The position numbers and the translations under genes are program-made. Positions 7,747 through 62,371 of a stretch of 64,000 bases of DNA are shown one piece after another (the first letter of the stretch is position 1; the number at the start of each line of letters is the position of its first letter). Source of the stretch: Candidatus Bathyarchaeota archaeon (GTDB lineage: Archaea; Thermoproteota; Bathyarchaeia; TCS64); the NCBI GenBank assembly GCA_026014875.1, contig JAOZHO010000017.1:11611-75610 (forward strand). Reading direction: 5' to 3'. The notes beneath the pieces are model-generated. The model was not told the origin of the DNA and did no database searches. It was given only the letters and a program-made list of their open reading frames with translations.

Positions 7747-9669
7747 GTGCGTCGATCCATGACACCTGAAATCGAAGTCGTATTCCAACCCCACGGGAAG
7801 CGCGCCAAGTTTTCCCAGGGCGTCACCGTGATGGAGGCGGCGCAGGCCCTCGGCGTGGACATCTCCGCCCTCTGCGGGGGGAAAGGGAAATGCGGGAAGT
7901 GCAAGGTCAGAGTCTTGGGCGGTGTCGGGACGGATTCCAAACCCACAGATAAAGAGCTGAAGCACCTCTCCGAGGATGAGATCCGGGACGGATTCAGGCT
8001 CGCGTGCACCACTCGCCTGGGGGCCTCCACGGTCATCCACGTGCCCCTGAGGAGCAGGATAGGCAGGCAGAGGCTGCAGACGGGGGGCCTCGAAGTCCCC
8101 GTGAAGCTGGACCCCCTCGTGAAAAAGTATCGCGTGACCATGCCCCCGCCCCATCTCAGAGACTCCAGGGCGGACGAGGACAGGCTCCTCGCCTCGTTGA
8201 CCGAGGAACATGGCCTCCCGGAGCTAGGGATCGACTTCGACATCTACCGGGTCCTCCCCAGGGTCGTCCGGGAGGCCAAGTGGGACGCGACCGCCGTCGT
8301 CTGGAAGGACAGGATCATCGCCCTGGAGCCCGGGGACACATCTGACAGGTGCTTCGGGCTCGCCGTTGACGTGGGGACCACCAAGCTCGCCGGCTTCCTC
8401 ATCGACCTCAAGAGGGGGGAGGTCGTCGCCGTGGCTGCGAGGATGAACCCTCAGATCCCCTTCGGGGAGGACGTCATGTCCCGGGTCTCCCATGTCATGA
8501 GCGGGGGATGGGATGCCCTCGAGAAGCTCCAGGACGCCGTCGTCTCGGGGGTCAACGAGATCGTCGTGGAATGCTGCGGGAAAGCCGATGCGAGACCCGA
8601 GGAGATCTACGAGCTCAACTTCGTGGGGAACACGGTGATGCAGCTCCTCCTCCTCGGAGTCTGGCCGAGACACGTCGTTTCCTCCCCCTTCACTCCAGCT
8701 ATAAGGAGGGGGGTCGACGTCAAAGCCGCTACTTTGGGTTTAAGGGTTAATCTAGGTGCCAACGCCCACCACCTGCCGGTGATAGGGGGATTCGTGGGGG
8801 CGGACAACGTCGCGATGGTGCTTGCGTCGGGGATTCTAGAGTCCGACGAGATGATCATAGCCATCGACGTGGGCACCAACACCGAGATCGACCTGGGGAA
8901 CAGGGAGCTTGTCATGGTGGCCTCGTGCGCGTCGGGTCCGGCCTTCGAGGGGATGCACATAAAGTTCGGGATGAGGGCCACCACAGGGGCCATAGAGAAG
9001 GTCGGCATCGACCCCGAGACCTTCGACGTATACTATCGGACCATCGGGGACGCACCTCCCATCGGGATCTGCGGCTCCGGCATAGTGGACGCCCCGGCGG
9101 AGTTCCTCAAGGCGGGCCTCATCATGCCCCGGGGGAACTTCGTCACCGGAATGACTGAGCGGACGGACCGGTTGAGGAAGGGTCCGGACGGCTGGGAATT
9201 CGTGATAGCGTGGGGGAAGGAGACGGATATCGGCACGGACATCGTCGTCACCCTCAAGGACATCAGGGAGCTCCAGAAGGCCAAGGCAGCCATCCACACC
9301 GGCGCAGACCTCCTGATGCAGAGGATGGGAATACGCGAGGCCGAGATCAGCAAGCTCGTGGTCGCTGGGGCCTTCGGCAACTACATCGACCCCGAGAACG
9401 CCCGCATCATAGGGATGTACCCTGAGATTCCCTTGGAACGCATCGAGTTCGCCGGCAACCTCGCAGGAACGGGCGCCAGAATGACACTAATGAGCAGGGA
9501 GATGAGGGAGCACGCCGAGATGATCAGCTCCAGGGTCAGGTACCACGAGCTCGCGGCGGACCCGGGCTTCCAGAAGGAATACATCGACTCCCTGAACTTC
9601 CCCCACTCCGACCTATCGAAATACCCAGAGACCGTGGAGCTACTCCGGAGATACGGTCAGAAGATCTGA
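7747..9669 (+). CDS. RACo-like protein (DUF4445): N-terminal plant-type 2Fe-2S ferredoxin plus ASKHA ATPase domain, putative reductive activator of corrinoid proteins
   Basis: N-terminal CGGKGKCGKCKV ... C is a 2Fe-2S ferredoxin. The central AVDVGTTKLAGFLIDL...NPQIPFGEDVMSRVS and the later AIDVGTNTE are ASKHA phosphate motifs. Length is 640 aa. Confidence 0.65.
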   Translation: MRRSMTPEIEVVFQPHGKRAKFSQGVTVMEAAQALGVDISALCGGKGKCGKCKVRVLGGVGTDSKPTDKELKHLSEDEIRDGFRLACTTRLGASTVIHVPLRSRIGRQRLQTGGLEVPVKLDPLVKKYRVTMPPPHLRDSRADEDRLLASLTEEHGLPELGIDFDIYRVLPRVVREAKWDATAVVWKDRIIALEPGDTSDRCFGLAVDVGTTKLAGFLIDLKRGEVVAVAARMNPQIPFGEDVMSRVSHVMSGGWDALEKLQDAVVSGVNEIVVECCGKADARPEEIYELNFVGNTVMQLLLLGVWPRHVVSSPFTPAIRRGVDVKAATLGLRVNLGANAHHLPVIGGFVGADNVAMVLASGILESDEMIIAIDVGTNTEIDLGNRELVMVASCASGPAFEGMHIKFGMRATTGAIEKVGIDPETFDVYYRTIGDAPPIGICGSGIVDAPAEFLKAGLIMPRGNFVTGMTERTDRLRKGPDGWEFVIAWGKETDIGTDIVVTLKDIRELQKAKAAIHTGADLLMQRMGIREAEISKLVVAGAFGNYIDPENARIIGMYPEIPLERIEFAGNLAGTGARMTLMSREMREHAEMISSRVRYHELAADPGFQKEYIDSLNFPHSDLSKYPETVELLRRYGQKI

Positions 9670-18149: not shown

Positions 18150-18938
18150 ATGAGCGTCAAGCTTCATCACAAGAGCTGGGTCACCATCAAGAAGCACCTA
18201 GAGTCCTCGGACACTGTGATCATACCCCTCGGCTCCATGGAGGCCCACGGGGAGCACAAACCCGTGGGATGCTGCTACCTCCTCGCCGAGGCGGCCTCGG
18301 AGGAGGTCTCCGAAAGGACCGGAGTTCCCCTCACCCCCGTTATCCCCTTCGGGATCTCCCCGCCCTACAAGCACTTCCCGGGCACAGTCACGGTGAGCTC
18401 CGAGACCCTCAACCGGTACGTCTACGAGGTCTCCGAGAGCCTCGCGCGCGCCGGCTTCAGGAAGATACTGTTTTTCAGCGCCCACGGCGGCAACAACCTC
18501 TCAGTCCTGAGGGAGGTCTCCTACAGGCTCCGGGAGGAGCACGGCGTCCTATGCGCCGTCATCCACGTCTGGGGCGTCATCTCGAAGATGATCCCCCCGG
18601 ATTTCTGGGGTCCCGGCCACCGCAGGGGCCACGGCGGGGAGCCCACCACCTCGGTGATGCTCCACCTGAAGCCAGACCTGGTTGACATGGCGAAGGCTCA
18701 GCTGAAGCCCCTGAAGGACATCGGGGAGGGCTTCGAAGCCAAGTCCTACGGGAACCACGAGTTCCAGGGGATAGTCCACAGCATCTTCCTCCACGCCGAG
18801 GAGGTGCAGCCCAGCGGGTTCATGGGGGACCCCACCAGGGCCACCCCTGAGAAGGGGAAATTCCTCTACGAGAAGGCAGTAGATCACCTCGTGGACCTCG
18901 TCGAGGCCTTCAGGAAAGTGGACCCCGATCAGGGCTAG
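18150..18938 (+). CDS. creatininase-family amidohydrolase (paralog 1)
   Basis: IIPLGSMEAHGEHKPVGCC ... FFSAHGGN ... GHGGE are metal-binding motifs of the creatininase/ArfB/MftE fold. Confidence 0.85.
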   Translation: MSVKLHHKSWVTIKKHLESSDTVIIPLGSMEAHGEHKPVGCCYLLAEAASEEVSERTGVPLTPVIPFGISPPYKHFPGTVTVSSETLNRYVYEVSESLARAGFRKILFFSAHGGNNLSVLREVSYRLREEHGVLCAVIHVWGVISKMIPPDFWGPGHRRGHGGEPTTSVMLHLKPDLVDMAKAQLKPLKDIGEGFEAKSYGNHEFQGIVHSIFLHAEEVQPSGFMGDPTRATPEKGKFLYEKAVDHLVDLVEAFRKVDPDQG

Positions 18939-19707
18939 CCTGCAGGGGTTATCTCCCAGTCTTTCCCATCCATCTCCCCGATGAAGTCAACCAGGAGGTC
19001 CACCAAGGCGTCCCGCATCAGCCGCCCCTTCTCGGGAGTCGCCTTCGTGGGATCACCGGTCACCGCATAGGGCGTTATCTCGTCGAACCTCCACTTCACC
19101 TGAACGTGGACCGGCAGATCCGGCACGACACCCCTCGCCCTCTCCATCTCCACGAGCTCCGGGGCAACCGCCAGCATCATGGAAGTCTCCCCCTCCCCGC
19201 CGTGGCCCAGCCCGTCCCAGACCTCGAAGGTCCCCTCGGGGAGGAGCTCCCCCGCGGTCACCCACCATGCTTCGAGGACGGCGATCCGCATCTCCGGGTG
19301 CTCGGTCCTGAACTCCCGGGTCGAGGCCTCGATGGCTGGAATGTTCCCGTCGTGGCCGTTGACGATGAGAAGCTTTTTGATCCCGTGGCTGAGGAGGGAT
19401 GCGAAGACCTCCCGGAGGACCCGCATCAGTGTCTCCGTGGTGAGGGTAAGCGCGATGGGGAACGAGGAGTAGTGGACGCTCATCCCGATGGGCAGAGCCG
19501 GGAGCACCAGGAGCCCCTCGACCCTCTCAGCGACAGCCTCAGCGAGATGGGACGCGATGAGGGTATCGGTGCCATGGGGGAGGTGCTCACCGTGGGACTC
19601 CGTTGATCCCACCGCCAGGACGGCCTTGTCGAAGCCCCCGGCCTCGAGTCCATGCCCCGTGAGCCGGAGCAGACGTTTCTCGCTCAAAATTTCACCGTAG
19701 AGCATTA
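18935..19707 (-). CDS. creatininase-family amidohydrolase (paralog 2)
   Basis: LAVGSTESHGEHLPHGTD ... IVNGHDGN ... GHGGEGE. Trimmed to ATG (MLYGEIL) at 19705-19707 because the longer 19978 frame is an extension. Confidence 0.8.
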
Positions 19708-19760
19708 AACCGGATTCGAATATAAGGACAGGAGGATAAAGTCTACGAGGAGGGTTACGG

Positions 19761-20510
19761 ATGTCTGATGAGGGTTCCCCGAGGGGGAGCGTCTGGATCG
19801 AGAATCTCACTTGGGTGGAGGCCGAGAGGGTTCTGGAGGAGTATGAGGTGGTGATGATACCTCTGGGGGCCAGGACCAAGGAGCACGGCCCCCACCTCCC
19901 CCTGAACAACGACTGGGTCATGGCGGAGTACCTCGCCAAGCGGGTGGCTGCTGAGGTCCCCGTCGCGGTGATGCCCACGCTCCAGTACGGATACTACCCC
20001 TCGTTCCTCGAGTACCCGGGCTCAGTCTCCCTGGGCTTCGAGACCTTCAAGGATCTGGTGAAGGACGTCTGCGTCTCCCTGGCGGGCTACGGCGTCCGCA
20101 AATTCTACGTCCTCAACACAGGGGTCTCAACCGCGAGGGCCCTCGGGCCGGCATCCGAGGAGCTCAGGAAGCAGGGGATCGAGATGAGGTTCACCGACAT
20201 CCTGGCCTCCGGGGCCAGGGCCGAGGAGGGGGTCTCCGAGCAGGAGGGGGGCACCCACGCAGACGAGATGGAGACCTCCATGATGCTCTACATCGACCCC
20301 GAGATGGTGGACATGTCCAAGGCCGTGAAGGATTATGATCCATCGGGGGGCCTGGGGCTCACCCGGGACCCCGAGAAAATAGGCTCCAAGTACTCGCCCA
20401 CGGGGGTCTTCGGGGACCCGACGCTGGCCACTGTGGAGAAGGGGAGGGTCGCGGTGGAGGCGAGGGTCCGCTTCATCGTCGAGGAGCTGAGAGCCCTCAT
20501 CGATTCTTAG
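19761..20510 (+). CDS. creatininase-family amidohydrolase (paralog 3)
   Basis: MIPLGARTKEHGPHLPLNNDW ... VLNTG ... GTHADEME. Confidence 0.85.
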   Translation: MSDEGSPRGSVWIENLTWVEAERVLEEYEVVMIPLGARTKEHGPHLPLNNDWVMAEYLAKRVAAEVPVAVMPTLQYGYYPSFLEYPGSVSLGFETFKDLVKDVCVSLAGYGVRKFYVLNTGVSTARALGPASEELRKQGIEMRFTDILASGARAEEGVSEQEGGTHADEMETSMMLYIDPEMVDMSKAVKDYDPSGGLGLTRDPEKIGSKYSPTGVFGDPTLATVEKGRVAVEARVRFIVEELRALIDS

Positions 20511-22487: not shown

Positions 22488-23681
22488 TTGGGAGTGTGTC
22501 CGGAATTGGATGAGGGCTTCGAGGAGATCTACACAGTCAGAGACGATTACAAGAGATTCCACCAGGAGAACACGGCTTTCGGGAGGGCCATGAGGGCCGG
22601 GAAGAGGGGATACGTCGACCCCGAGGCGAAGCTGAAACGGATGAAAGACGATATTCCGGGTTACGGCATCGTCGACTACGCCTTCAGCGGCGCCGCCCTC
22701 ACAGCCGCCCAGGCCTCCCACTCCGGCCGCGGGAACCAGGACTCCGGCTTCTACTCCTGGAGCCCCCTGGGGGTGACCCACAAGCCCGAAGGAGTCCCCC
22801 GGTGGGAAGGGTCCCCGGAAGAGGCGGGCAGGATCGTCGCCAAGGCCGGGAAATTCTACGGAGCCGTGAGCGTCGGCTTCACCGAGCTCGATAAACGCTG
22901 GGTCTACAGCCACGACTCCGACGGGAGGCCCATCGTCTTCGAGGACGTCGATGAGGGCTACGTCACCGAGGAGAAGGCGGTGATCCCCGAGAGCCACAGG
23001 TGGGTCATCGCGATCACCGTGCCCATGGAGGTGGATGAGATGATGTACGCCCCGACGGCCCTGAACCCCGTGAGCAACATGGGCTACAGCAGGATGCCCG
23101 TCGTCGCCGGGAGCGTAGCCGAGTTCATCAGGGGCCTCGGGTACCACGCCATCCCCTGCGGCAACGACACCGCCCTCAGCGTCCCCATTGCGATCCAGGC
23201 CGGCCTGGGCCATCTGGGGCGCCACGGCCGCCTCATCACCTGGGAGAGGGGGCCCATGGTGCGCATCGCCAAGGTCTTCACCGACCTGCCCTTCGAACAG
23301 AGCCCCCTCGCCCCTAAGGGGATCATCGAGTACTGCGAGGTCTGCAAAAAGTGTGCCAAGGAGTGCCCCAGCGGCTCCATCCCCGAGGGGCCCCGGACGT
23401 ATGAGGGGTTCAGCGAGGCGAACAATCCGGGGGTCCTCAAGTGGTACTGCAACGCGGACACCTGCCTCGACTACTGGAGGGAGGTGGGCTCAGGGTGCAG
23501 CATCTGCTTCAGGGTCTGCAGCTTCACCAAGGAGAGGGGAATCACCCACGGCATCGTGAAGTGGTTCATCAGGAACGTCCCCCAGCTCAACAGGCTCTGG
23601 GTCTGGACAGACGACTTCCTCGACTACGGGAAGATGGCCGATCCATCGGAGTACTGGGACCTCCCCTACAAGAGGAGCTAG
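22488..23681 (+). CDS. reductive dehalogenase / epoxyqueuosine reductase (QueG) superfamily protein: corrinoid-binding core plus 2x[4Fe-4S] ferredoxin motifs
   Basis: C-terminal CEVCKKCAKECP and C..DTC...C...CSICFRVC look like two Fe-S cluster motifs as in the RdhA/QueG superfamily. Start is uncertain (TTG 22488 or ATG 22590). Confidence 0.5.
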   Translation: MGVCPELDEGFEEIYTVRDDYKRFHQENTAFGRAMRAGKRGYVDPEAKLKRMKDDIPGYGIVDYAFSGAALTAAQASHSGRGNQDSGFYSWSPLGVTHKPEGVPRWEGSPEEAGRIVAKAGKFYGAVSVGFTELDKRWVYSHDSDGRPIVFEDVDEGYVTEEKAVIPESHRWVIAITVPMEVDEMMYAPTALNPVSNMGYSRMPVVAGSVAEFIRGLGYHAIPCGNDTALSVPIAIQAGLGHLGRHGRLITWERGPMVRIAKVFTDLPFEQSPLAPKGIIEYCEVCKKCAKECPSGSIPEGPRTYEGFSEANNPGVLKWYCNADTCLDYWREVGSGCSICFRVCSFTKERGITHGIVKWFIRNVPQLNRLWVWTDDFLDYGKMADPSEYWDLPYKRS

Positions 23682-29229: not shown

Positions 29230-30126
29230 ATGTCCGTCGAGGCTATAACAGACACCATCTCGATGATCGACTCCCCCTACCACGGACTCGGGGAGGTGCT
29301 CGAAACATACCTGATACAGGGACAGAAGTCAGCTGTAATCGACCCGGGCCCCGCACCCCTCGTCCCGGGGGTCATCGAGACCCTCGAAGCGACCGGGGTG
29401 ACCCATCTCGACTACATCCTACTGACCCACATCCACATCGACCACGCCGGCGGCTGCTGGAAGATGCTGGAGACGTACCCCGACGCCACGATCCACTGCC
29501 ACCCCCGAGGAGCGGAGCACGTCATCGACCCCTCGAGACTCCTCGCCGCCGCCGGGAAAATCTTCGGCGACGCCCTCAGCGAGTTCGGCGAGGTACGAGG
29601 CGTGCCAGCGGAGAGGGTCGCAGAGTCCACGGACGGTGAGACCCTGAACCTGGGAGGGGTCAGCCTCGAGACGATCTGGACCCCCGGCCACTCAAGCCAC
29701 AGCCAGAGCTACTTCGAGCCGGACTCCGGGGTGGTCTTCGCGGGGGACGCCGCCGGCTACTACCCCGGGAACAAGGGGGTCCTCGTCCCCGATGCCCCCC
29801 CTCCCCACAACCCCGCCCAGGCCGCGGATAGCCTCCTCAAACTGATGAGGTACGAACCGAAGACCATCGCCTACAGCCATTTCGGGTACTACGATGAAGC
29901 GACGACTCGGCTTGAACGCTTCCTCGATCAGACGAGGCTTTGGGATCGACTCGCCCAGGACGGGGTCGAAGCGGGCCTCTCGTTGAACGATATATTCGAT
30001 CTGCTCGTCGAGGAGGATCCCGAAGCCCGGGAGCTCGCCGGAATCGACGAGGAGGGCAAGAGGGCGGTCTACTTCAATCTGAAGAGCTTCGTCGGATATG
30101 CGAAATGGCGGAGAAAGTCTCCGTAA
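29230..30126 (+). CDS. MBL-fold metallo-hydrolase
   Basis: LLTHIHIDHAGG is an HxHxDH motif, with downstream His/Asp ligands. Confidence 0.85.
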   Translation: MSVEAITDTISMIDSPYHGLGEVLETYLIQGQKSAVIDPGPAPLVPGVIETLEATGVTHLDYILLTHIHIDHAGGCWKMLETYPDATIHCHPRGAEHVIDPSRLLAAAGKIFGDALSEFGEVRGVPAERVAESTDGETLNLGGVSLETIWTPGHSSHSQSYFEPDSGVVFAGDAAGYYPGNKGVLVPDAPPPHNPAQAADSLLKLMRYEPKTIAYSHFGYYDEATTRLERFLDQTRLWDRLAQDGVEAGLSLNDIFDLLVEEDPEARELAGIDEEGKRAVYFNLKSFVGYAKWRRKSP

Positions 30127-30253
30127 GGGGATGACCTAGTTCCCTTTTTTTGAGCAGTATTCAGATCACCCACTCGCTTGAAAAAGAGAAAAAAACATCA
30201 GAAAACTCGATTCGACTATAAACTCCTGGCCGCCTCTCGGCGTCTGAGCTTAT

Positions 30254-30433
30254 CTAGAACCTTCTTGGCGGCCTGTGCTTAGCAAAGCACTCACGGCAGT
30301 AAACCGGCCTGCCCTCTGTCGGCTTGAAGGGGACCTCGGCCTCCTTCCCGCAATCAGAGCAGATGATCTTGGTCATCTCACGCGGGCCACGGTCGTATCC
30401 ACCGCGCCTATCTCTATAACCCAATACTTTCAC
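30254..30433 (-). CDS. small CxxC-x17-CxxC zinc-ribbon protein, copy A (59 aa, GTG start; core MTKIICSDCGKEAEVPFKPTEGRPVYCRECFAKHRPPRRF)
   Basis: Hand translation of the minus strand. Paralog of 30752..30934 and not in the ORF track because it is 59 aa. Confidence 0.6.
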   Translation of the reverse strand: MKVLGYRDRRGGYDRGPREMTKIICSDCGKEAEVPFKPTEGRPVYCRECFAKHRPPRRF

Positions 30434-30751
30434 TCCTATTCTGTGTGTATGCTCAGAACGCCTCTCGGTATTCGCCGCACACTGGGCACGCAGGGGTATT
30501 TCTCCCTTTTAAACCATTTTACGCAAAGCCAACCATAAACAACCTAAACCAGAGTCGTGCGCGATGAGGGCGGTTTTATTCAGTCTGAAGAGCTTCGTCG
30601 GATATGCGAAATGGTTGAGAAAGTCTCAGTGACCAGATTACCTGTTTCGGGTCATCCTTCAGAACCCTCACTAGCTTGGAAAAAAAGAAAAAACAATAGA
30701 AAACTCGATTCGACTATAAACTCCTGGCCGCCTCTCGGCGTCTGAGCTTAT

Positions 30752-30934
30752 CTAGAACCTTCTTGGCGGCCTGTGCTTAGCAAAGCACTCACGGCAGTAA
30801 ACCGGCCGGCCCTCTGTCGGCTTGAAGGGAACCTCGTCCTCCTTCCCGCAATCAGAGCACGTGATCTTTGTCATCTCACGCGGGCCGCGGTCGTATCCAC
30901 CGCGCCTGTTGTCTCTATAACCCAATACTTTCAC
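30752..30934 (-). CDS. small CxxC-x17-CxxC zinc-ribbon protein, copy B (60 aa)
   Basis: MKVLGYRDNRRGGYDRGPREMTKITCSDCGKEDEVPFKPTEGRPVYCRECFAKHRPPRRF. Differences from copy A are mostly synonymous, plus one in-frame 3-nt indel. Confidence 0.65.
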   Translation of the reverse strand: MKVLGYRDNRRGGYDRGPREMTKITCSDCGKEDEVPFKPTEGRPVYCRECFAKHRPPRRF

Positions 30935-31100
30935 TCCTATTCTGTGTGTATGCTCAGAACGCCTCGCGGTATTCTCCGCACACTGGGCACGCAGGCGCGG
31001 TTCTCCCTTTTAAACCCTTTTACGCCGACCCAACTATAAACAGGCAAATCCAAAAGAACCTCCTAGAATAAATAACTGGAGAGGACCCGGGGGATATACG

Positions 31101-31766
31101 ATGGAAACAGTCATACTGATACGCCACGGGGAGGCGGAGCACATGGTGAGCGACCTGACAGGGGGCTGGTCCCAGACCCCCCTCACCGAGAAAGGCAGGG
31201 CCCAGGTGCGCGCCCTGGCGACGAGGCTCGAGAAGGATCTCGAGGGGGTCGATTATGCTTTCTACTGCAGCGACTTAAAGAGGGCACACCAGACCGCCGA
31301 TATCATCGCCGAGGCGGTGGGGCGTGAGCCGATCCCCTCCCGGGAGCTCAGGGAGTTCAACAACGGCGTCGCCGCCGGCAGGGCCAAGGAGGAGGTCGCC
31401 CACCTGTACCGCCCCCCATCGGAGTCAATAATGGACTGGCAGCCCTACCCCGAGGCGGAGACGTGGCGGAGGTTCTACCGCAGGATCACGGCGTTCATGG
31501 ACGAGGTCCATGCTGAGGAGGATCGTCCCACCCTCATAGTCTCCCACGGGGGCACCATCGTCAACCTCGTCGCCTGGTGGATCAGGCTCGAGGAGGCCGG
31601 CCTCTCATACACCACGTTCCATACGTCCCCTGCGAGCCTCAGCGTCCTCAATGTCACCCCCCTCAACGAGAGGGCCGTGGAGAGGCTCAACGACACCGCG
31701 CACCTGCATAAACTGGGGCAGGTTCCCCGCCTCCCTCTAGAGGCGAAACCTCAGAGCGCTCCTTGA
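31101..31766 (+). CDS. histidine phosphatase family protein (phosphoglycerate-mutase-like)
   Basis: ILIRHGEAEH is the RHG catalytic motif, with a later His in SHGGTI. Confidence 0.8.
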   Translation: METVILIRHGEAEHMVSDLTGGWSQTPLTEKGRAQVRALATRLEKDLEGVDYAFYCSDLKRAHQTADIIAEAVGREPIPSRELREFNNGVAAGRAKEEVAHLYRPPSESIMDWQPYPEAETWRRFYRRITAFMDEVHAEEDRPTLIVSHGGTIVNLVAWWIRLEEAGLSYTTFHTSPASLSVLNVTPLNERAVERLNDTAHLHKLGQVPRLPLEAKPQSAP

Positions 31767-31800: not shown

Positions 31801-32685
31801 TCAACGGGTCGTGTCGAGGCTGACGCTGCCGACCCCCAACCTGATGTCAAGTCTCAGGCTGGGCTCCTGGGATTTCTCGTAGGCGTCGTTGGTGTAGACC
31901 CCTCCCAAGGGGAAACCCTTGCTCCGGGTTCGGAGGAAGCCCCCGTGGGCGCTCACGCTGGCGAGCCCCTCTACCGAGACCCTGGTGGGCACGGTCTCGT
32001 CCACGGTGATCCTGAAGCTCCCGACCCCTCCCCCGATGTCCACCCTTGCGTCGCGGTCGAGGCTCTTCCCGGTGAAGCCGAGCCTCATCTCCCCGACCCC
32101 GCCCTCCACCTTCATCCTGTCGAAGTTGGCGTTGAGGAGGCCGCTGGCGTCGAGGTCCCCGGCCCCCGCGGAGAGCTTTAGAAGCCTGAGGGCTTCGGGG
32201 TTGGGGGAATCGAAGCTCAGGGAGTTGTTGCTCACCCCCGCCTGGAGTGTGAGGTCCGTGAGGGGGAGGCCCCCGAGGTCCCAGTCCCCCATGCTCACTC
32301 CGCAATTTACGTCCATGGAGAAGGGCTTCCCGTCCCCCAGCTTGATGTCCCAGCGGTTCACGGGGTTCGACCTGACTCGGACAACGAACCTCTACTCCTG
32401 GACGATCCTCACCCTGTCCCCCTGGACACGGACCACCGGGGCGAGCTCGGAGTCGTCATACTCCACCGTCCCCTCCACGAACCTTCCGGATGCGCCCCCG
32501 GAGACGTTGATCCGCCCCGCGGAGCGGACCACGATCTCGAGCCTCGCCGAGTCCCCCTCCGGGTAGGGGATGTCCAGGGTCTCCACCTTGATCGCCTGGA
32601 GGGTCTCTCCCACGGGCGTGCCGCACGCTGAGCAGAATAAGTCTTCGACTCCCAGCTCTTTCCCACATTTGATGCAAAAGGGCAT
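31801..32685 (-). pseudogene. zinc-ribbon plus DUF4097-like (beta-strand repeat, putative adhesin/LiaG-like) protein interrupted by a single in-frame TAG at 32392-32394
   Basis: ORFs 32392..32685 and 31801..32361 are in the same frame, separated only by TAG plus 10 sense codons. Combined length (about 293 aa) and domain order (N-terminal CxxC..CxxC ribbon, then repeated ...V.V.GG.G...V strands) match a single DUF4097-type protein. Confidence 0.5.
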
Positions 32686-32803: not shown

Positions 32804-34294
32804 ATGAGGATAGCGGTGGCTAGCTTCTCCCACGAGACCTGCACCCTCTGCCCCAGGCCGACGACGGTCGAGGATTTCGAGCGGGGCGGGGTTTACTACG
32901 GGGAGGAGGTTCTGGATCGGGTCAGGGGCAGCCCCACGTACATGAATGGGTTCATCAAGGCGGCCGAGGTAGAGTCCGACGTGGAGCTCGTAGGGGTTCT
33001 CAGCGCGGCGAAGAGCTGGGGCGGCTCATCGGGGAGCTGGCTGACCCGGGAGTGCTTCGACAAGTATTCCCTGGGCATCGAGGAGGGGCTCAAGAAGGCG
33101 GGGAAGCTGGACGGGGTCCTCCTGGCGCTCCACGGGGGCATGGCGGCGACGGGGGTCCCGAGGCCCGAGGCAGAGATCGTCCGGAGAGCCCGCAGGGCTG
33201 TGGGGGGCATCCCCATCTTCGTGACATTCGACATGCACGGCAACGAGGACCAGGAGATCGTGGATGCCGTGGATGGCGTCTTCAGCATCAAGACCTTCCC
33301 CCACATCGACTCGGAGGAGACGGGAGTGGCTGCGGCTAAGTGCCTCTTCGAGACTGTCCGGGGGAGTTTCAAGCCTACCATGGCTCTGAGGAAGCCGGGG
33401 GTCATCTCCCCGGGTGTCTTCCAGCACACGGGCTCCCACCCCATGAAGGACATCATCGCTAGGGCGAAGGAGTGGGAGGAGAAGGAGCCCGACGCCCGAT
33501 GGGTCTCCTCGATGCCCGGGTTCCCCTACGCGGACGTCCCCGACGCGGGGTTCACCGTGATAGCCCTCACCAACGGCGACCAGGAGCTCGCGGAGCGCAT
33601 CGCCGACGACATGGCGGACCTCGTCTGGAGCCTCCGGGTCCCCCTCGCGAGCAGGAAGCTACCCAAGCCCAAGGAGGGGGTAGAGAAGGTCCTGAAGCTC
33701 GTCGCAGGGGGGAAGACCCCTGTCATCATCGCGGATCACAGCGACCGCACGGGGGACGGTACCCATGTCCTGGAGCAGCTCCTCAAGCAGGGGGCGAAGA
33801 ACTTCGGCATCTCAACCATCAAGGACCCCAAGGCGGTCCTAGAGATCATGGATCAGGCCGAGGTGGGGGACACCGTGACGGTGAAGGTCGGGGGATACGA
33901 GCACCTCTCCGGGAACCCGGTGGAGCTCACCGGGCGGGTCGAGTTCCTCGGGGACGGAGACTACATCAAGGCGGGGCCCATGAGCAAGGGCAGCAAGACC
34001 CTCCTGGGGCCCACCGCCGTCCTTGACCTAGGGGACAACAACCACGTGGTGATAAGCTCAACCCTCCACCAGGTCACCGACTCTGCGGGCTTCACCGCCT
34101 TCGGCATCGACTTCGACAGCCTGGAGATCATGTCCCTCAAGTCTAGGGTTCACTTCAGGGCCTTCTACGAGAGCGTCGCGGGGTCTATCGTGGAGATCGA
34201 CTCCCCGGGGCTCGGGATAGCGGACCTCACCACCATCGACTACAAGAACGTCCCCAAGGACATCTATCCCTTCGTCGAGGAGCGACCCGGCTGA
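32804..34294 (+). CDS. M81 family metallopeptidase (MlrC/microcystinase C-like, DUF1485+DUF1446)
   Basis: MRIAVASFSHETCTL... N-terminus and overall 496-aa architecture are typical of MlrC-like proteins. Confidence 0.75.
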   Translation: MRIAVASFSHETCTLCPRPTTVEDFERGGVYYGEEVLDRVRGSPTYMNGFIKAAEVESDVELVGVLSAAKSWGGSSGSWLTRECFDKYSLGIEEGLKKAGKLDGVLLALHGGMAATGVPRPEAEIVRRARRAVGGIPIFVTFDMHGNEDQEIVDAVDGVFSIKTFPHIDSEETGVAAAKCLFETVRGSFKPTMALRKPGVISPGVFQHTGSHPMKDIIARAKEWEEKEPDARWVSSMPGFPYADVPDAGFTVIALTNGDQELAERIADDMADLVWSLRVPLASRKLPKPKEGVEKVLKLVAGGKTPVIIADHSDRTGDGTHVLEQLLKQGAKNFGISTIKDPKAVLEIMDQAEVGDTVTVKVGGYEHLSGNPVELTGRVEFLGDGDYIKAGPMSKGSKTLLGPTAVLDLGDNNHVVISSTLHQVTDSAGFTAFGIDFDSLEIMSLKSRVHFRAFYESVAGSIVEIDSPGLGIADLTTIDYKNVPKDIYPFVEERPG

Positions 34295-34345
34295 CTCCCC
34301 CTCGACCTGAATAATTTAAGGCAAGATGAGCATACAGATTCCAAT

Positions 34346-35692
34346 ATGACGCTGTGGGATTCCATCCAGAGAGAGATCGACGAGGCTAACCGGAGAGCCA
34401 TCGAGATCATCAAGCCCAGCGAGCAGGAGACGGAGAGGGGCCTCCGAGTCCACGGGGAGGCCATCGTCTTCGACTTCGGCCCCCCGGGGGGCCCCCTCAT
34501 CTACTCCGATAGGCTCACCGCGAAGATCAACCAGCTCTACGACGAGGGGCGCCTCAGGCAGACCTACGCCCGCTCCAGGGGACCCGCTGACAGGATATCC
34601 AGGTACTACCCCCCCGAGAAGCACCTCAGGTTCGACGGCCTCCCGGGGCGCCTCAGATACGAGGCGGTGAAGGAGCACGCATACGACCCCGAGGCGAAGG
34701 AGGCCTACAAGCGGGCGTGGGGGATCGCGGGGGTCACCGTGATGAGCACCGGGGGAGGGGGTTCGAGTCTGGAGGGCTACGACTTCCACAAGTACAAGAT
34801 GGAGACCCTCAGGGACGTGCTGGTCCCCGCGACATGCGCCGAGGACGTGAGGCGGGCGAAGGCGGAGGGGAGACACGGCATCATCTGGAACACTCAGGAT
34901 CCGAAGCCCTTCTTCAAGAGCGGCGATCTGGACCAGGACCTGGACCGCCTCGACATGTTCCACCGTCTCGGGCTCAGGGAGGTCCAGCTCACATACAACC
35001 TCAACAACCTGGTGGGGGCCGGCTGCACCGAGAGGTACGACTTCGGCCTCACCCGCTTCGGGTTGAAGGTGCTGGAGAGGCTCAACGATCTCCGGATCCT
35101 AGTCAACGTCAGCCACTGCGGGCGTCAGACCACCCTCGACGCCTGCGAGGCCTCGGAGGCTCCCGTGGTCGCGAATCACGCGAGCTGCGAGGAGGTCTAC
35201 GCCCATCCCAGGGCGAAATCCGACGAGGAGATCCACGCCGTCGCCGAGTCCGGGGGCTACTTGGGCATCTGCAGGGTCCCCCACTTCATAGGGTGGAACG
35301 CCACCATCAAGGACCTCTTGGACCACATCGATTACGCCGTCGAACTCGTCGGAGCCGACCACGTGGGGATAGGAACGGACCAGGGCTGGGCTGCTCCCAT
35401 CCCCCGGGGGATCCACGAAGAGTACGCGAAGATCGAAGCCGAGTACATCCCGGCCTCCCGGATGCCCCCGGACGCCCCCATGCCCACGAGGGACAACTAC
35501 GCGGGGTGGTGGTCGGGGTTCAGGCCGGAGCATTTCCCCTACGCCACGGACGAGCGCAACTTCGGCTCCCTCAGCTGGATCAACTGGCCCTACTACACCG
35601 TGGGCCTAGTCTCCCGGGGCTACTCGGACCAGGAGATAACCAAGATCCTCGGGGGGAACTTCCTCAGGGTCTTCGAGAAAGTGGTGGGCTGA
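34346..35692 (+). CDS. membrane dipeptidase, M19 family (second paralog)
   Basis: LREVQLTYNLNN...LVNVSHCG...H ligands fit the Peptidase_M19 layout. Confidence 0.8.
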   Translation: MTLWDSIQREIDEANRRAIEIIKPSEQETERGLRVHGEAIVFDFGPPGGPLIYSDRLTAKINQLYDEGRLRQTYARSRGPADRISRYYPPEKHLRFDGLPGRLRYEAVKEHAYDPEAKEAYKRAWGIAGVTVMSTGGGGSSLEGYDFHKYKMETLRDVLVPATCAEDVRRAKAEGRHGIIWNTQDPKPFFKSGDLDQDLDRLDMFHRLGLREVQLTYNLNNLVGAGCTERYDFGLTRFGLKVLERLNDLRILVNVSHCGRQTTLDACEASEAPVVANHASCEEVYAHPRAKSDEEIHAVAESGGYLGICRVPHFIGWNATIKDLLDHIDYAVELVGADHVGIGTDQGWAAPIPRGIHEEYAKIEAEYIPASRMPPDAPMPTRDNYAGWWSGFRPEHFPYATDERNFGSLSWINWPYYTVGLVSRGYSDQEITKILGGNFLRVFEKVVG

Positions 35693-41585: not shown

Positions 41586-43361
41586 TCAGCCGGCCAGAGC
41601 CGTCGCCTCTTCGATCAACCCCGTCGCCCTGTCGAGGGCTTTGCAAACCCTGTTGGTCTCCCTGACCATCCTCGTCCTCAGGAAGCCCGCCTCGTCGCTC
41701 CCCGGGTCGAGCCCCGCGATTTTTGCAGCGTTCTGGAGGGCCGGGAGGTGTGGGATGCCGTAGGCGGGGTCCTGGTCGAAGGGGCCGGTGTCGGTATAGA
41801 AAGTCGATGTCAGTATTCGGGTTATCTCGACGAGTAGGTCGTTGATTGCGGGAGCCTTCTTCTCACCTAGGCCGTCAATGGCCCCGTTCAACGTCTCCGC
41901 CTTGATCTTAAGTGCCCTGACCCTGTCGAGGACGGGTCCCAGATTGTAGGTTCCCGAAGCTGCCCGGGTCTGGATCTCCGTGGCGGTCTCTTCATACATC
42001 TCCGCGACCTGGGCGAAATCGAAGGGGAAGACCCTGGAGTTCACTGATCGGCGTATGGCGAGGGCCTCCATCCTGATGTCCCTGAGGAGGTTATCCTTGT
42101 CCCCCTTGTCCAGGGTGTCGAAGGCGCTGTGCCACCACCAGGCCCCGCCGCTCCCCCCGATCCATCTGCCCCTGTGGGGGCTCCCCTCGGGGATGTTGGC
42201 CCGGACGGCGACGCTGGGTATCCCTATGCCGTAGAAGGACTGGTCCCCGGCCCTCATGTAGTAGGCCCGGGACTCGATGCCCTCCTGGCCCGAGGCGTCC
42301 TCCGCGGCTATCCGGATGGCCTCCATGGTGCCCATGAGGCCTCCGCCTCCCAGCTCCGAGGCCCCCAGGACTCCGGGGGAGTCGATGTTCATGGAGAGGA
42401 AGCAGTTGCGGTCCAGGTCGTGGAACCTGTTGTCGGCGTACCATGTCGAGGCTGAGTAGCGCCCCGTGGAGTGGCCGGACCACCAGGCGATCCTTACGCT
42501 CCTCTTGAGCTTCCCCTTGTTCTCCTCGAGGAGCCTCGCGAGCTCCAGGAGGGCAGCGTTCCCAGTGCAGTTATCCGTGGTTCCCAGGTACCAGGAGTCC
42601 ATGTGGCCGTGGACAAGCATGAACTTCTCGGGCCTCTCGGAGCCCTCGATCTCTGCGACGGTGAAGGGTATCCTCCTCCACCGGGTGTCCGTCCTCGCCT
42701 TGAGGTTGACCCTCACGGGGCCCTCCTTCGCCATATCCATGAGCCTCTCCCCGTCGCTGTGCTTCACTGAGACCGCGGTGATGTCCGGTATCCTCTCCGC
42801 GGATTCGGGGGTAGGAGTCCCCCAGATCGTGGTGACGATCATCTCATGGAGGACGTCCCCGCCGCAGATGTGGATCTGGGCGATGGCTCCCGCCTGCTGG
42901 GCCGCCCAGACCACCGCGGGGCTCGCGACGCCGTACATCAGTGCGATCTTTCCTTCGACGTTGGAGGCTTTGTACTGGTCCACGAGGTCCCCTAGGCCCG
43001 TGAATAGGCTGCTGGGGGAGACGGGCACGTAGACCATCTCGGCCTCGATTCCCTCCTCGGGGGTGGCCTTGGAGAACGAGTGAGTGATGCACTCCACGTC
43101 CCGGCCTGCCGGGGAGACGACTCTGAGGGACGCCTCCTTGGGGTGGCTTATCAGGGAGTCGAACTCGATGGCCTCATATTTGACGCCGTACTCCTCGAGC
43201 TTCTCCCGTATGTACTCGTGGGCCTTCATCTCCCCCTCGGTCCCGGAGGTCTTGTCCAGGGTCGAGAGGTGCTCCACGTGGCTCCAGGTCTCGTCGATGT
43301 CGATCCCGGAGAGGAACTTTTTCTCTTCTTTCGATAACATCTTCAAACCTCTTCTCTTCAT
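41586..43361 (-). CDS. M28 family peptidase with PA domain
   Basis: HGHMDSWYLGTTDNCTGNAALLELAR and WWSGHSTG are M28 zinc-ligand motifs, with a PA-domain insert. Confidence 0.8.
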   Translation of the reverse strand: MKRRGLKMLSKEEKKFLSGIDIDETWSHVEHLSTLDKTSGTEGEMKAHEYIREKLEEYGVKYEAIEFDSLISHPKEASLRVVSPAGRDVECITHSFSKATPEEGIEAEMVYVPVSPSSLFTGLGDLVDQYKASNVEGKIALMYGVASPAVVWAAQQAGAIAQIHICGGDVLHEMIVTTIWGTPTPESAERIPDITAVSVKHSDGERLMDMAKEGPVRVNLKARTDTRWRRIPFTVAEIEGSERPEKFMLVHGHMDSWYLGTTDNCTGNAALLELARLLEENKGKLKRSVRIAWWSGHSTGRYSASTWYADNRFHDLDRNCFLSMNIDSPGVLGASELGGGGLMGTMEAIRIAAEDASGQEGIESRAYYMRAGDQSFYGIGIPSVAVRANIPEGSPHRGRWIGGSGGAWWWHSAFDTLDKGDKDNLLRDIRMEALAIRRSVNSRVFPFDFAQVAEMYEETATEIQTRAASGTYNLGPVLDRVRALKIKAETLNGAIDGLGEKKAPAINDLLVEITRILTSTFYTDTGPFDQDPAYGIPHLPALQNAAKIAGLDPGSDEAGFLRTRMVRETNRVCKALDRATGLIEEATALAG

Positions 43362-55375: not shown

Positions 55376-55666
55376 TTATCTCTTGGACCTGTTGGAGCGT
55401 ATCCGCGACGCGAGCTCAGCGGTGATGAGGGTTTTCGACTTTGCCTTGTCGACGATGATGGATCCGGTCCTGTCCCATGGCTTCTTCGAGAAGGCCGCCC
55501 CAGGTTTCAGCTCTGGGTTCAGCTCCAAGTCCTCGGCCGCCTTGTAGAGCTCGTCCACCTTGACCCCTCGGAGGGCAAGCCCCTTGGGGACTCTCCTACC
55601 TTTTCCTCGAGTGTTTTCGGACTCGAAGTAGGCTGGCCAGAAGACTAGTCTGCCTTTTGTTCTCAA
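55376..55666 (-). CDS. srp19: signal recognition particle protein SRP19
   Basis: LVFWPAYFESENTRGKGRRVPK is the SRP19 signature. Confidence 0.85.
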   Translation of the reverse strand: MRTKGRLVFWPAYFESENTRGKGRRVPKGLALRGVKVDELYKAAEDLELNPELKPGAAFSKKPWDRTGSIIVDKAKSKTLITAELASRIRSNRSKR

Positions 55667-55693
55667 CCGGGCCTCAACTCGTGAGGGATAGTG

Positions 55694-56173
55694 CTACTCC
55701 TCTTCTATGAGGATTGCGTTGAAGACCCCGTGCTGGCCGGGGCGTGAGACTATCCTTGCGAGCCCCCCCTCGATGCGCACGATGGCTCCCTTGGTTATAA
55801 CTCCCCGCCTGTTGTAGTCTATGTTGGCGGGGTTTTCCACGACGGCCTGGATCTCGAGTCTTTCCGTGGTCCCCGTAGAGGGGTCGGAGACGTTGACAAT
55901 GTTGTCAGAGAAAAGCTTCACCTTGGTAAGACTGCTCTTCCCGGACACCACCCTCCTGATGGTATCGCCCAGTTCCGACTCCAGTGGGCCGCTCCCTGAG
56001 TCCCTGCGCCTCTTGGATCTGTATGCTCTCTTCTTTCCGCCCGTCTTTTTCCGCTTTGTGATTCCGCTCTGCCAGGCCAACTCGTTTTCCTCAGTGTAAA
56101 AGGGTTCAGCCCTTTCTTTAGGCTTAGACCGATGAGAGATATAAAAATGTGTGGAATCCCTCTCAGGAACCAT
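55694..56173 (-). CDS. rps8e: 30S ribosomal protein S8e
   Basis: C-terminal VVENPANIDYNRRGVITKGAIVRIEGGLARIVSRPGQHGVFNAILIE matches archaeal S8e. Confidence 0.85.
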   Translation of the reverse strand: MVPERDSTHFYISHRSKPKERAEPFYTEENELAWQSGITKRKKTGGKKRAYRSKRRRDSGSGPLESELGDTIRRVVSGKSSLTKVKLFSDNIVNVSDPSTGTTERLEIQAVVENPANIDYNRRGVITKGAIVRIEGGLARIVSRPGQHGVFNAILIEEE

Positions 56174-56197
56174 TCCCAGGGGAATTCTCCGGTGCCC

Positions 56198-56830
56198 CTA
56201 GGGGAGCTTGTCCATTGACTCGACGAGAGTGCTCCCTGTGAAGGCTAGGTCGAGGGCCTTCTTCCCGGCGCTCTCCCCTTCCCCGTTGTCGAGTCTGTGG
56301 ATCTTTATCTGATTGAATATCCTCCTGAGCTGTATCCTCGTGTTCGAGGGGTCCGTGCCGAAACCGAAATAGTCCGCGAAGAACGGCGTGGTCTCGATCA
56401 CATACGCCCTGTTCTCGTTTCTCTCCCGGGTGATGAGGCCCATGTCCTCCATCCTCTTCAAGTGGGAATAGATGTGGTTCCCCCTATACTCCACGACCTG
56501 AGACTGGAGTACGGGCTGATGGTAGGCGACGTAGGACAGGGTCTTCAGGGGACCCATCGTGAGGAGGGGCCTCGTTGTGAACCTCTTCACCGACTGATCG
56601 TACCTCTGATTGAGCCTCATGACGGCCCGGTTCCCCGGCAGGACCTTTACCTCCAGGGCGCTCCTCCGCGCTTCGTATCGTAGAGAGAGCTCCCGGATCA
56701 GCCGGGCGATCACCTTGTCGGATTTCGTTCTGACTACTACCTTCATGCTCTCCATGTTCACCGGGCGCCCGGCGGCGTAGAGGGCCGCCTCAAGCATCGC
56801 CAGGCGCTTATTGTTCTGTTGGTTGCTCAT
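56198..56830 (-). CDS. scpB: segregation and condensation protein B (ScpB)
   Basis: Tandem winged-helix organisation. Overlaps scpA by 23 nt downstream of smc. Confidence 0.75.
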   Translation of the reverse strand: MSNQQNNKRLAMLEAALYAAGRPVNMESMKVVVRTKSDKVIARLIRELSLRYEARRSALEVKVLPGNRAVMRLNQRYDQSVKRFTTRPLLTMGPLKTLSYVAYHQPVLQSQVVEYRGNHIYSHLKRMEDMGLITRERNENRAYVIETTPFFADYFGFGTDPSNTRIQLRRIFNQIKIHRLDNGEGESAGKKALDLAFTGSTLVESMDKLP

Positions 56831-57482
56831 CTTCGTTCAACTCTCTGACGTTGACCCGTATGTCGGTCTCTTCCTCGTCCTGGTAGAGGTCCACCTTGAG
56901 CCCTTGGGCCAAGAACAGCAGCATCATGAATACCCGGACCACCTCTATGGGGGTCCAGTCCTCGACGAGGTCGTAGATGCTGAAGGGTCCTCCCCCCATC
57001 TCCACTAGGCGCTCATAGAGCCCCTCCGCCCGTTCCTCCACCTCGAGGAGGTACTGCTCCACGTCGAGGAAGTCGGGTATCTGAACCGGGAGCACGGGGA
57101 CCCGGGGGAGGGTTGACCTCCTCTCCTCCGTGAGGGCCTTCTCCAGGGCCGTGATGAGGTCTGTGACACTCGTCGTCGTGAACTCGAACCTGAACGGGAG
57201 ATTCAGGGCGGGCGGAACGTAGATGTCGGGCCTCGCAATCTGCTGCTTCCTGGGCTCCTCCATCTTGAGGAGAAGCTCAGCCTTCTTCTGGTAGATGATC
57301 ACCGAGGAGTTGATGGCCGTCCCCGCGATCCTGAAGTCGATGCCGACCTTGTTCATCTCCTCCAGGAGGGTGGTGAGGATGTACACCAGATCGATGCTCC
57401 AGGGGCTGGTCCTCCCCAGCTTCCTGTCCTTGAAGAGGATCTCCCAGGGCTCCCGGAGGTAGTAAGGCTTCTTCCTAGGCAC
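56808..57482 (-). CDS. scpA: segregation and condensation protein A (ScpA kleisin)
   Basis: 224-aa kleisin-like protein immediately downstream of smc. Confidence 0.75.
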   Translation of the reverse strand: MPRKKPYYLREPWEILFKDRKLGRTSPWSIDLVYILTTLLEEMNKVGIDFRIAGTAINSSVIIYQKKAELLLKMEEPRKQQIARPDIYVPPALNLPFRFEFTTTSVTDLITALEKALTEERRSTLPRVPVLPVQIPDFLDVEQYLLEVEERAEGLYERLVEMGGGPFSIYDLVEDWTPIEVVRVFMMLLFLAQGLKVDLYQDEEETDIRVNVRELNEDEQPTEQ

Positions 57483-61306: not shown

Positions 61307-62371
61307 ATGAGAACAGAGAGATTATCGAAATCCTTGGAGGATGCGGGGCTCGACGCATACATCGTCACGCGAGAACCCAACATCTTCTACTACACCGGCT
61401 CCATCAGCGGCGGAGTCCTCATCATCGCCCCGGATACCAGCCCCCTACTTTTCACATCTCGCCTCAACCTGTACATAGCCCAAGACAACGCCCAGGGCTG
61501 CAACGTGGAACCGTACACGAAAAAGGACAAAGACGAAAAGATCTTAGAGCGGCTGAACCAGATAGCTCCCGAGAAGATCGGCTTCGATGAGCTCTCCCTT
61601 GGGGAATACAAAGCGCTCGAAGACAAGCTTGGTGATGTGAAACTAAAAGATAACCCGGATCTCGTCTGGGCGATGAGAAGGGTGAAGGACGCCTCGGAGC
61701 AAAAGTTCATGAAGCGGGCTGGAGAACTCTCTGACATCGGGATGGAGGCGATCAGAGAGTTCCTCGCCGAGGGGGTGAGAGAGCACGAGGTCGCCGCAGC
61801 AGCGGCCAACGCGATGAGAAGGGAAGGGGCGGGCGACATCTCGTTTCCATTCATCGTCGCCTCAGGGCCCCGCTCGGCCTACCCCCACGCTGGTGTCTCC
61901 GAGAGGAAGATCCGGAGAGGCGATTTCGTCACCATTGACATGGGCGCCACATACAGGAGGTATTGTTCCGATATAACCCGGACATTCATCGTCGGCTCCC
62001 CCTCCGAGAAGCAGAGGACGATCTACGAGACGGTCCTCGAGGCAAAGGAGGCGGCCCTCCCGGAGATCAGGGAGAGCGCCAAAGGGATCGATGTCGACCG
62101 AATCGCCAGAGACATAATCACGAAGGCTGGATATGGGGAGGACTTTATTCACGGCCTCGGCCACGGGGTGGGCCTCGAGGTCCATGAGCCCCCTTCCCTT
62201 AGCAAGAGGAGCGGGGACACTCTGGCTGTAGGGAACGTTGTCTCCAACGAGCCCGGAATCTACATCAAAGGATTCGGTGGCGTGAGGATCGAGGACACAG
62301 TCCTGGTGACCTCTTCAGGTCCCGAGAGACTCACAAATTTCGATACTGGCTTGGACGCGATGCGCGTCTGA
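61307..62371 (+). CDS. M24 family Xaa-Pro aminopeptidase/prolidase
   Basis: Pita-bread metal ligands (DFVTIDMGA, HGLGHGVGLEVHE, NEPG, IED). Confidence 0.85.
   Translation: MRTERLSKSLEDAGLDAYIVTREPNIFYYTGSISGGVLIIAPDTSPLLFTSRLNLYIAQDNAQGCNVEPYTKKDKDEKILERLNQIAPEKIGFDELSLGEYKALEDKLGDVKLKDNPDLVWAMRRVKDASEQKFMKRAGELSDIGMEAIREFLAEGVREHEVAAAAANAMRREGAGDISFPFIVASGPRSAYPHAGVSERKIRRGDFVTIDMGATYRRYCSDITRTFIVGSPSEKQRTIYETVLEAKEAALPEIRESAKGIDVDRIARDIITKAGYGEDFIHGLGHGVGLEVHEPPSLSKRSGDTLAVGNVVSNEPGIYIKGFGGVRIEDTVLVTSSGPERLTNFDTGLDAMRV

Follow-up and report, generated by a model that had tools for sequence, protein, structure and literature searches.

The gene on the minus strand at 31801..32685 of the 64-kb window (by which we mean the whole stretch of DNA that was analysed) is a single gene for a zinc-ribbon/Toastrack protein, broken at codon 98 by an in-frame TAG that we consider probably to be a genuine and very recent nonsense allele, i.e. 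either a nascent pseudogene or a loss-of-function variant that is still segregating. Translated from 32685 to 31801, the sequence runs in one frame for 294 codons, with a single stop inside it and a TGA at its end, and is orthologous over its whole extent to zinc-ribbon/toast-rack proteins of 292-299 aa from Bathyarchaeota. The interrupting codon lies at 32394-32392 (32392..32394, minus strand), its changed base being plus-strand position 32394, where the coding strand has T and the orthologs have G. No frameshift is involved, and the original prediction was thus correct in describing two open reading frames that share a frame with a TAG alone between them. The upstream fragment (97 codons plus TAG, 32392..32685, minus strand) has the NCBI entry MCW3988886.1 (‘zinc ribbon domain-containing protein’), and a 186-codon open reading frame that starts from an internal GTG (31801..32361, minus strand) has the entry MCW3988885.1 (‘hypothetical protein’, NWE88_02280). 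The complete downstream continuation (codons 99-294 plus TGA, 31801..32391, minus strand) corresponds to the beta-helix body of the toast-rack fold.

Pfam profile HMMs identify a Zn_Ribbon_1 domain (PF13240; 27.5 bits, cut-off 25) at residues 3-25 (32611..32679, minus strand), with the pattern CxxC-x10-CxxC, which bears out the N-terminal CxxC..CxxC ribbon that had been read from the sequence; its four cysteines are invariant across the close orthologs. When the two halves are joined, Toast_rack_N (PF17115) matches residues 47-130 (32296..32547, minus strand) with 33.5 bits against a curated cut-off of 22, taking in profile positions 6-92 of 92, and on this score the protein belongs to the Toastrack superfamily. 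Scored separately, the upstream and downstream halves reach 17.7 and 14.0 bits respectively, both under the cut-off. As the match to the joined sequence spans codon 98, the stop sits within a domain rather than between two.

The fold was examined using an intact ortholog that is 91% identical (P0001) and not the interrupted sequence itself. The AlphaFold2 model of this ortholog (pLDDT 89.5, pTM 0.82) is a continuous all-beta fold in which residue 98 occupies a loop between strands 91-96 and 110-117, and its top match in the PDB is 4QRK (E=1.7e-14), with further matches to the ‘putative adhesin’ structures 3LYC, 3PET, 3JX8, 4OPW and 3LJY. The Toastrack domain unifies DUF2154, DUF4097 and DUF2807, and 4QRK, one of its representatives, is a beta-helix in which seven N-terminal strands form an intertwined region (PMC11237479); given such an intertwined fold, a cut after residue 97 parts one folding unit. 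The straddling Pfam domain, the single fold of the ortholog model and the uninterrupted orthologs described below together establish that both halves belong to one gene, as had been proposed from the single-gene architecture. The accompanying label, ‘DUF4097-like’, is sound at the level of fold and superfamily (Toastrack, PMC11237479) but does not hold by profile HMM, where the assignments are Toast_rack_N together with, in homologs, LiaF-like_C/DUF2154 (PF09922): PF17115 matches 32 of 36 family members and PF09922 18 of 36, whereas DUF4097 (PF13349) matches one of 36 homologs, weakly (E=0.0058), and gives no match to the window protein at E<=1.

In its above-cut-off HMM match and its predicted fold the protein resembles other Toastrack proteins (PF17115 plus PF09922; 4QRK), from which it differs in having no TM, PspC or LiaI-LiaF-TM module, with a small zinc ribbon at the N-terminus instead, in adjoining peptidases and transporters rather than psp/lia genes, and, in the window copy, in bearing a premature stop. 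The intact protein is probably soluble and intracellular, a Toastrack protein headed by a zinc ribbon, and its beta-sheet surfaces may serve in protein-protein interaction, the role proposed for such surfaces across the Toastrack superfamily (PMC11237479).

A search of 5.8 billion proteins provided a set of 48 homologs, of which the full-length members are uninterrupted and the shorter entries examined are truncations at contig ends. One of these short entries, P0054 (186 aa), was considered as a second split copy and rejected because it starts 18 nt from the end of its contig, and we found no orthologs in this set that are naturally two genes, the arrangement that would have spoken against the original prediction. 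About 14 of the homologs are uninterrupted orthologs of 292-299 aa, with 87-91% amino-acid identity to the window protein over its full length, and all derive from Bathyarchaeota MAGs or metagenomes. At the nucleotide level the identity to the intact orthologs is 86-94% over the full length, without indels.

Codon 98 is GAG (Glu) in every one of the 11 orthologous DNA loci that cover it. These loci come from JGI, ENA, Logan and NCBI assemblies, and across the 123 nt that were compared they are ~72% to 96% identical to the window in nucleotide sequence; the position therefore carries a sense codon in relatives, and one that is a single step from TAG. The context is nearly identical (GTCCAGGAGTAGAGGTTCGT in the window, GTCCAGGAGGAGAGGTTCGT in the orthologs), the codons flanking the TAG being the same as in the orthologs for several positions on either side, and the interruption is evidently a single G to T transversion on the coding strand, private to the window sequence. 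At the protein level the close orthologs have Glu at residue 98 (…VQEE-RFVV…) and the more distant homologs R, E, D, P or G, a variety which indicates that the position is not conserved. The nearest species-representative genome, the Bathyarchaeota MAG BS750m-G27 (JADHWM010000088.1), is 93% identical over 5.4 kb and has the same gene order as the window, with an intact toast-rack gene and GAG at codon 98. An exact-pattern scan found no TAG allele in JGI metagenome contigs, and the exact 97-aa product is recorded only in the NCBI entry for the window's own MAG and in no independent assembly, so that the TAG allele is unreplicated.

These comparisons bear directly on whether the two fragments might constitute a functional natural split, with a zinc-ribbon piece and a 186-aa piece re-initiated at GTG 32361 that either act separately or reassemble. 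Both pieces are separate CDS at NCBI and the GTG follows the stop by 30 nt, but we regard this as the least credible of the readings considered. The spacer between TAG and GTG consists of 10 sense codons (RFVVRVRSNP) that match the orthologs residue for residue in the alignment, indicating that the coding sequence is unbroken across the TAG, and these conserved codons would be lost upon re-initiation; the GTG itself corresponds to Val codon 109 in the intact orthologs. The arrangement occurs in no relative, the break would fall inside Toast_rack_N, leaving each half under the family cut-off, and would divide what the ortholog model presents as one intertwined fold, and no SD-like motif is suitably spaced from the GTG, the only candidate being a GAGG ~27 nt upstream. 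The 186-codon reading frame from 32361 to 31801 is not an independent gene, and functional re-initiation at its GTG was accordingly rejected.

TAG is an ordinary terminator in this window, as the original prediction had maintained. Among 72 putative genes selected by a codon-position GC filter, 31 end in TGA, 28 in TAG and 13 in TAA, giving TAG a share of ~39% that includes housekeeping genes. Pfam matches stop just before the TAG in an undecaprenyl-diphosphate synthase (259/260) and a cyclophilin-like gene (122/124), full-length Pfam matches likewise finish near the TAG in an aminotransferase, an Ldh_2 protein and three creatininase paralogs, and the genes for ScpB and ribosomal protein S8e are also TAG-terminated. 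No PylS-, PylB-, PylC- or PylD-like protein and none of the methylamine methyltransferases MtmB, MtbB and MttB occurs among the ~60 annotated genes of the 64-kb window, and there is no tRNA-Pyl in the window, where the only tRNA is Ser-CGA and there is no other Rfam hit. The 131 nt from the TAG onwards fold no better than shuffled sequences (z=0.42). On the basis of TAG usage, the GAG of the orthologs and a window without pyl genes, tRNA-Pyl or methyltransferases, we reject genome-wide TAG recoding with Pyl, in keeping with the earlier lean against it; TAG is not a sense codon in this organism and an expanded genetic code is very unlikely. Programmed read-through is disfavoured in turn, since the stop is absent from all relatives and no stable structure follows it. 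Of the four options originally offered for the interruption, a recent nonsense pseudogene and a sequencing error therefore stand, whilst programmed read-through and a Pyl-type amber codon are both contradicted by the presence of GAG in every ortholog.

A narrower form of the same idea is that this particular TAG is translated, whether as Pyl by means of a pylTSBCD cluster elsewhere in the genome or by near-cognate suppression, to yield the 294-aa protein. PylRS genes are on record for a few Ca. Bathyarchaeota MAGs (PMC9630628), so that the phylum alone does not rule out Pyl. The window also encodes a corrinoid activator of the RACo type (7747-9669), a sign that corrinoid methyl-transfer metabolism is present, and the frame downstream of the TAG is intact and by its substitutions under purifying selection; were the TAG translated, the cell would go on producing the complete Toastrack protein, and the undiminished selection would be accounted for. 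The case resembles the Pyl-encoding UAG of MtmB, MtbB and MttB only in that an archaeal gene contains an in-frame TAG, in a phylum with sporadic PylRS. Unlike those codons, however, the TAG is not conserved in the orthologs (GAG in the close ones; R, D, P and G among the distant homologs), which leaves no conserved site for Pyl insertion or read-through; the protein, a Toastrack protein, is unrelated to the known Pyl-protein families; TAG is far from scarce (28 of 72 stops), and the window is without pyl genes, tRNA-Pyl or the three methyltransferases. In archaea, moreover, Sec and Pyl are the only demonstrated cases of termination read-through (PMC8211752), and no stable structure follows the stop. 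Translation of this TAG is consequently very unlikely, and that the TAG is at once real, fixed and translated through, by Pyl or by near-cognate suppression, is still less to be expected.

The state of the coding sequence beyond the stop constrains how old the lesion can be. For the codons after the TAG, comparison with three orthologs gives dN/dS values of 0.22, 0.20 and 0.14; the values between intact orthologs are 0.17, 0.16 and 0.13. Eleven synonymous and eight non-synonymous substitutions fall on the window branch in this region, with three of the eight non-synonymous sites sharing their base with a partial relative (contig L008). Non-synonymous sites make up ~76% of the total, and a binomial test rejects neutral evolution along the branch as a whole (P=0.002), the corresponding value being P=0.09 under a deliberately conservative 60%. 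The codons downstream of the TAG thus appear, from their pattern of substitution, to be still under purifying selection, and their coding signature is preserved (GC3 = 0.90). Taken together, purifying selection, the lack of indels and the high GC3 imply that the stop is much younger than the ~3% private divergence of the sequence, or is unreal, or that the protein is still made. Ordinary nonsense pseudogenes or loss-of-function alleles of prokaryotes and MAGs provide a close parallel: as in those, the stop is one step from a sense codon (GAG to TAG), is private to one genome and leaves the rest of the gene intact, but the window gene as yet shows neither relaxed selection nor further lesions, and is on that account either very young or not real. 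A downstream dN/dS of 0.14-0.22, like that of intact orthologs, fits a very recent lesion and an artefact equally.

A sequencing or assembly artefact, in which the organism itself has GAG and the T reflects a base-call or low-coverage error, or a minor strain variant carried into the consensus, is accordingly a serious alternative, albeit one that we judge doubtful. It would account for the occurrence of the TAG allele in no other assembly of what is, after all, a MAG, for flanks that are identical to the orthologs on each side of the codon, and for an intact downstream sequence under purifying selection, as expected of a whole gene. Three considerations weigh against it. First, of the window's genes, about 70 in number, the toast-rack gene alone is split: every in-frame abutting pair of open reading frames was inspected, and the other pairs proved to be distinct genes or antisense and non-coding frames. 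The MFS and metallo-beta-lactamase pair, considered as a split gene, consists of distinct genes that share a frame, and the ScpB, S8e and SRP19-like reading frames (55376-56836, minus strand), which lie in the same frame with TAG stops and short spacers between them and could be taken for one long TAG-interrupted frame, are three distinct conserved genes (ScpB identified by Pfam, S8e and SRP19 by eye from the translation). With no comparable defect elsewhere in 64 kb, the assembly is not generally error-prone here. Secondly, only 67 of the 2646 possible single-base changes in the gene create a stop, so a rare random error would seldom yield one. Thirdly, natural populations commonly harbour real nonsense alleles of non-essential genes.

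It is because such alleles are common, and because random errors seldom make stops, that we favour a genuine nonsense allele as the most likely explanation. Against it stand the lack of replication beyond the NCBI record of the window's own MAG, the fact that G to T changes are also a known class of oxidative-damage artefact, and the absence of downstream decay, which would be expected just as much of an artefact or of a product made by read-through. Under the nonsense-allele explanation, one gene for a soluble zinc-ribbon and Toastrack protein, conserved in one group of Bathyarchaeota, would have undergone one G to T transversion in the lineage or population of this MAG, converting the Glu codon 98 from GAG to TAG, and the change would be a real one in the DNA rather than a feature of the consensus alone. 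Given that TAG is an ordinary terminator, translation should end after residue 97. What remained would comprise the zinc ribbon and six beta-strands of the seven-stranded N-terminal region, a region that would normally be intertwined with the downstream beta-helix, and the truncated product would most likely be non-functional.

The biological weight of the interruption is small, one non-essential gene having been knocked out, or miscalled, in one MAG, and there is no novelty beyond the correction of an annotation: the entries MCW3988886.1 and MCW3988885.1 ought to be merged into a single gene that is marked either as a pseudogene or as having a stop codon inside it. The intact family, in which a zinc ribbon is fused to a Toastrack domain, occurs only in a clade of Bathyarchaeota and adds modestly to the Toastrack architectures already described. 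Where Pyl machinery is sporadic in a phylum, recoding should be inferred from an in-frame TAG only when orthologs conserve that TAG.

The surroundings of the toast-rack gene vary between close relatives. When the window is set against contig L001, to which it is 85% identical, additional genes appear on both flanks (31101-31766 and 32804-35692): a histidine phosphatase on one side and a pair of M81/MlrC and M19 peptidases on the opposite side. The peptidase pair is also present in the closer MAG BS750m-G27 (L007), and the phosphatase in the short contig L008, which indicates a fluid neighbourhood. A tandem duplication of ~500 bp lies nearby at 30060-31052 (copies at 30060-30551 and 30566-31052, with 83-90% identity across three aligned segments). 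On the minus strand each copy has a gene for a small treble-clef zinc finger, of which the copy at 30752-30934 matches PF23477 zf_Tbcl_2 (E=2e-20); contig L001 has a single copy at this position.

At the start of the window, positions 1-2130 are of low GC (0.42 vs about 0.60 elsewhere) and contain three 38-nt direct repeats that resemble the 3' end of a tRNA, at 574-611, 1127-1164 (68% identity) and 2090-2127 (92%). A sub-threshold tRNA match at 543-600 (28.3 bits, cut-off 29) has D, anticodon (UUG-like) and T arms and is without a proper 5' acceptor strand, and low-GC open reading frames, including one for a class I methyltransferase (1239-2051), lie between the 38-nt copies. The region looks like the remnants of one or two elements integrated in a tRNA gene, with duplications of the att site.

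Genes for peptide and amino-acid catabolism are unusually dense in the window (13096-36694, 41586-43361 and 61307-62371). They encode M20, M42, M28, M24, M81/MlrC and two M19 peptidases and a gamma-glutamyltranspeptidase, together with a succinylglutamate desuccinylase-like protein, a RimK-like ATP-grasp protein, an Asp/Glu racemase and several MFS transporters, a complement that fits a peptide-degrading lifestyle. The three creatininase-family (PF02633) paralogs mentioned above are adjacent (18150-20510, strands +/-/+) and all TAG-terminated; the longest reading frames of the second and third overlap by ~218 nt, and one of the two starts is probably further downstream. The RACo-type reductive activator of corrinoid proteins at 7747-9669 has Fer2 plus RACo linker, middle and C-terminal domains, and a reductive-dehalogenase-like protein (PF13486) is encoded separately at 22488-23681; the activator and the PF13486 protein hint at corrinoid-dependent metabolism, but the window showed no methyltransferase partner. 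Ribosomal proteins S25e and S8e, TBP and SMC/ScpB, which the window also encodes, bear out its archaeal origin.
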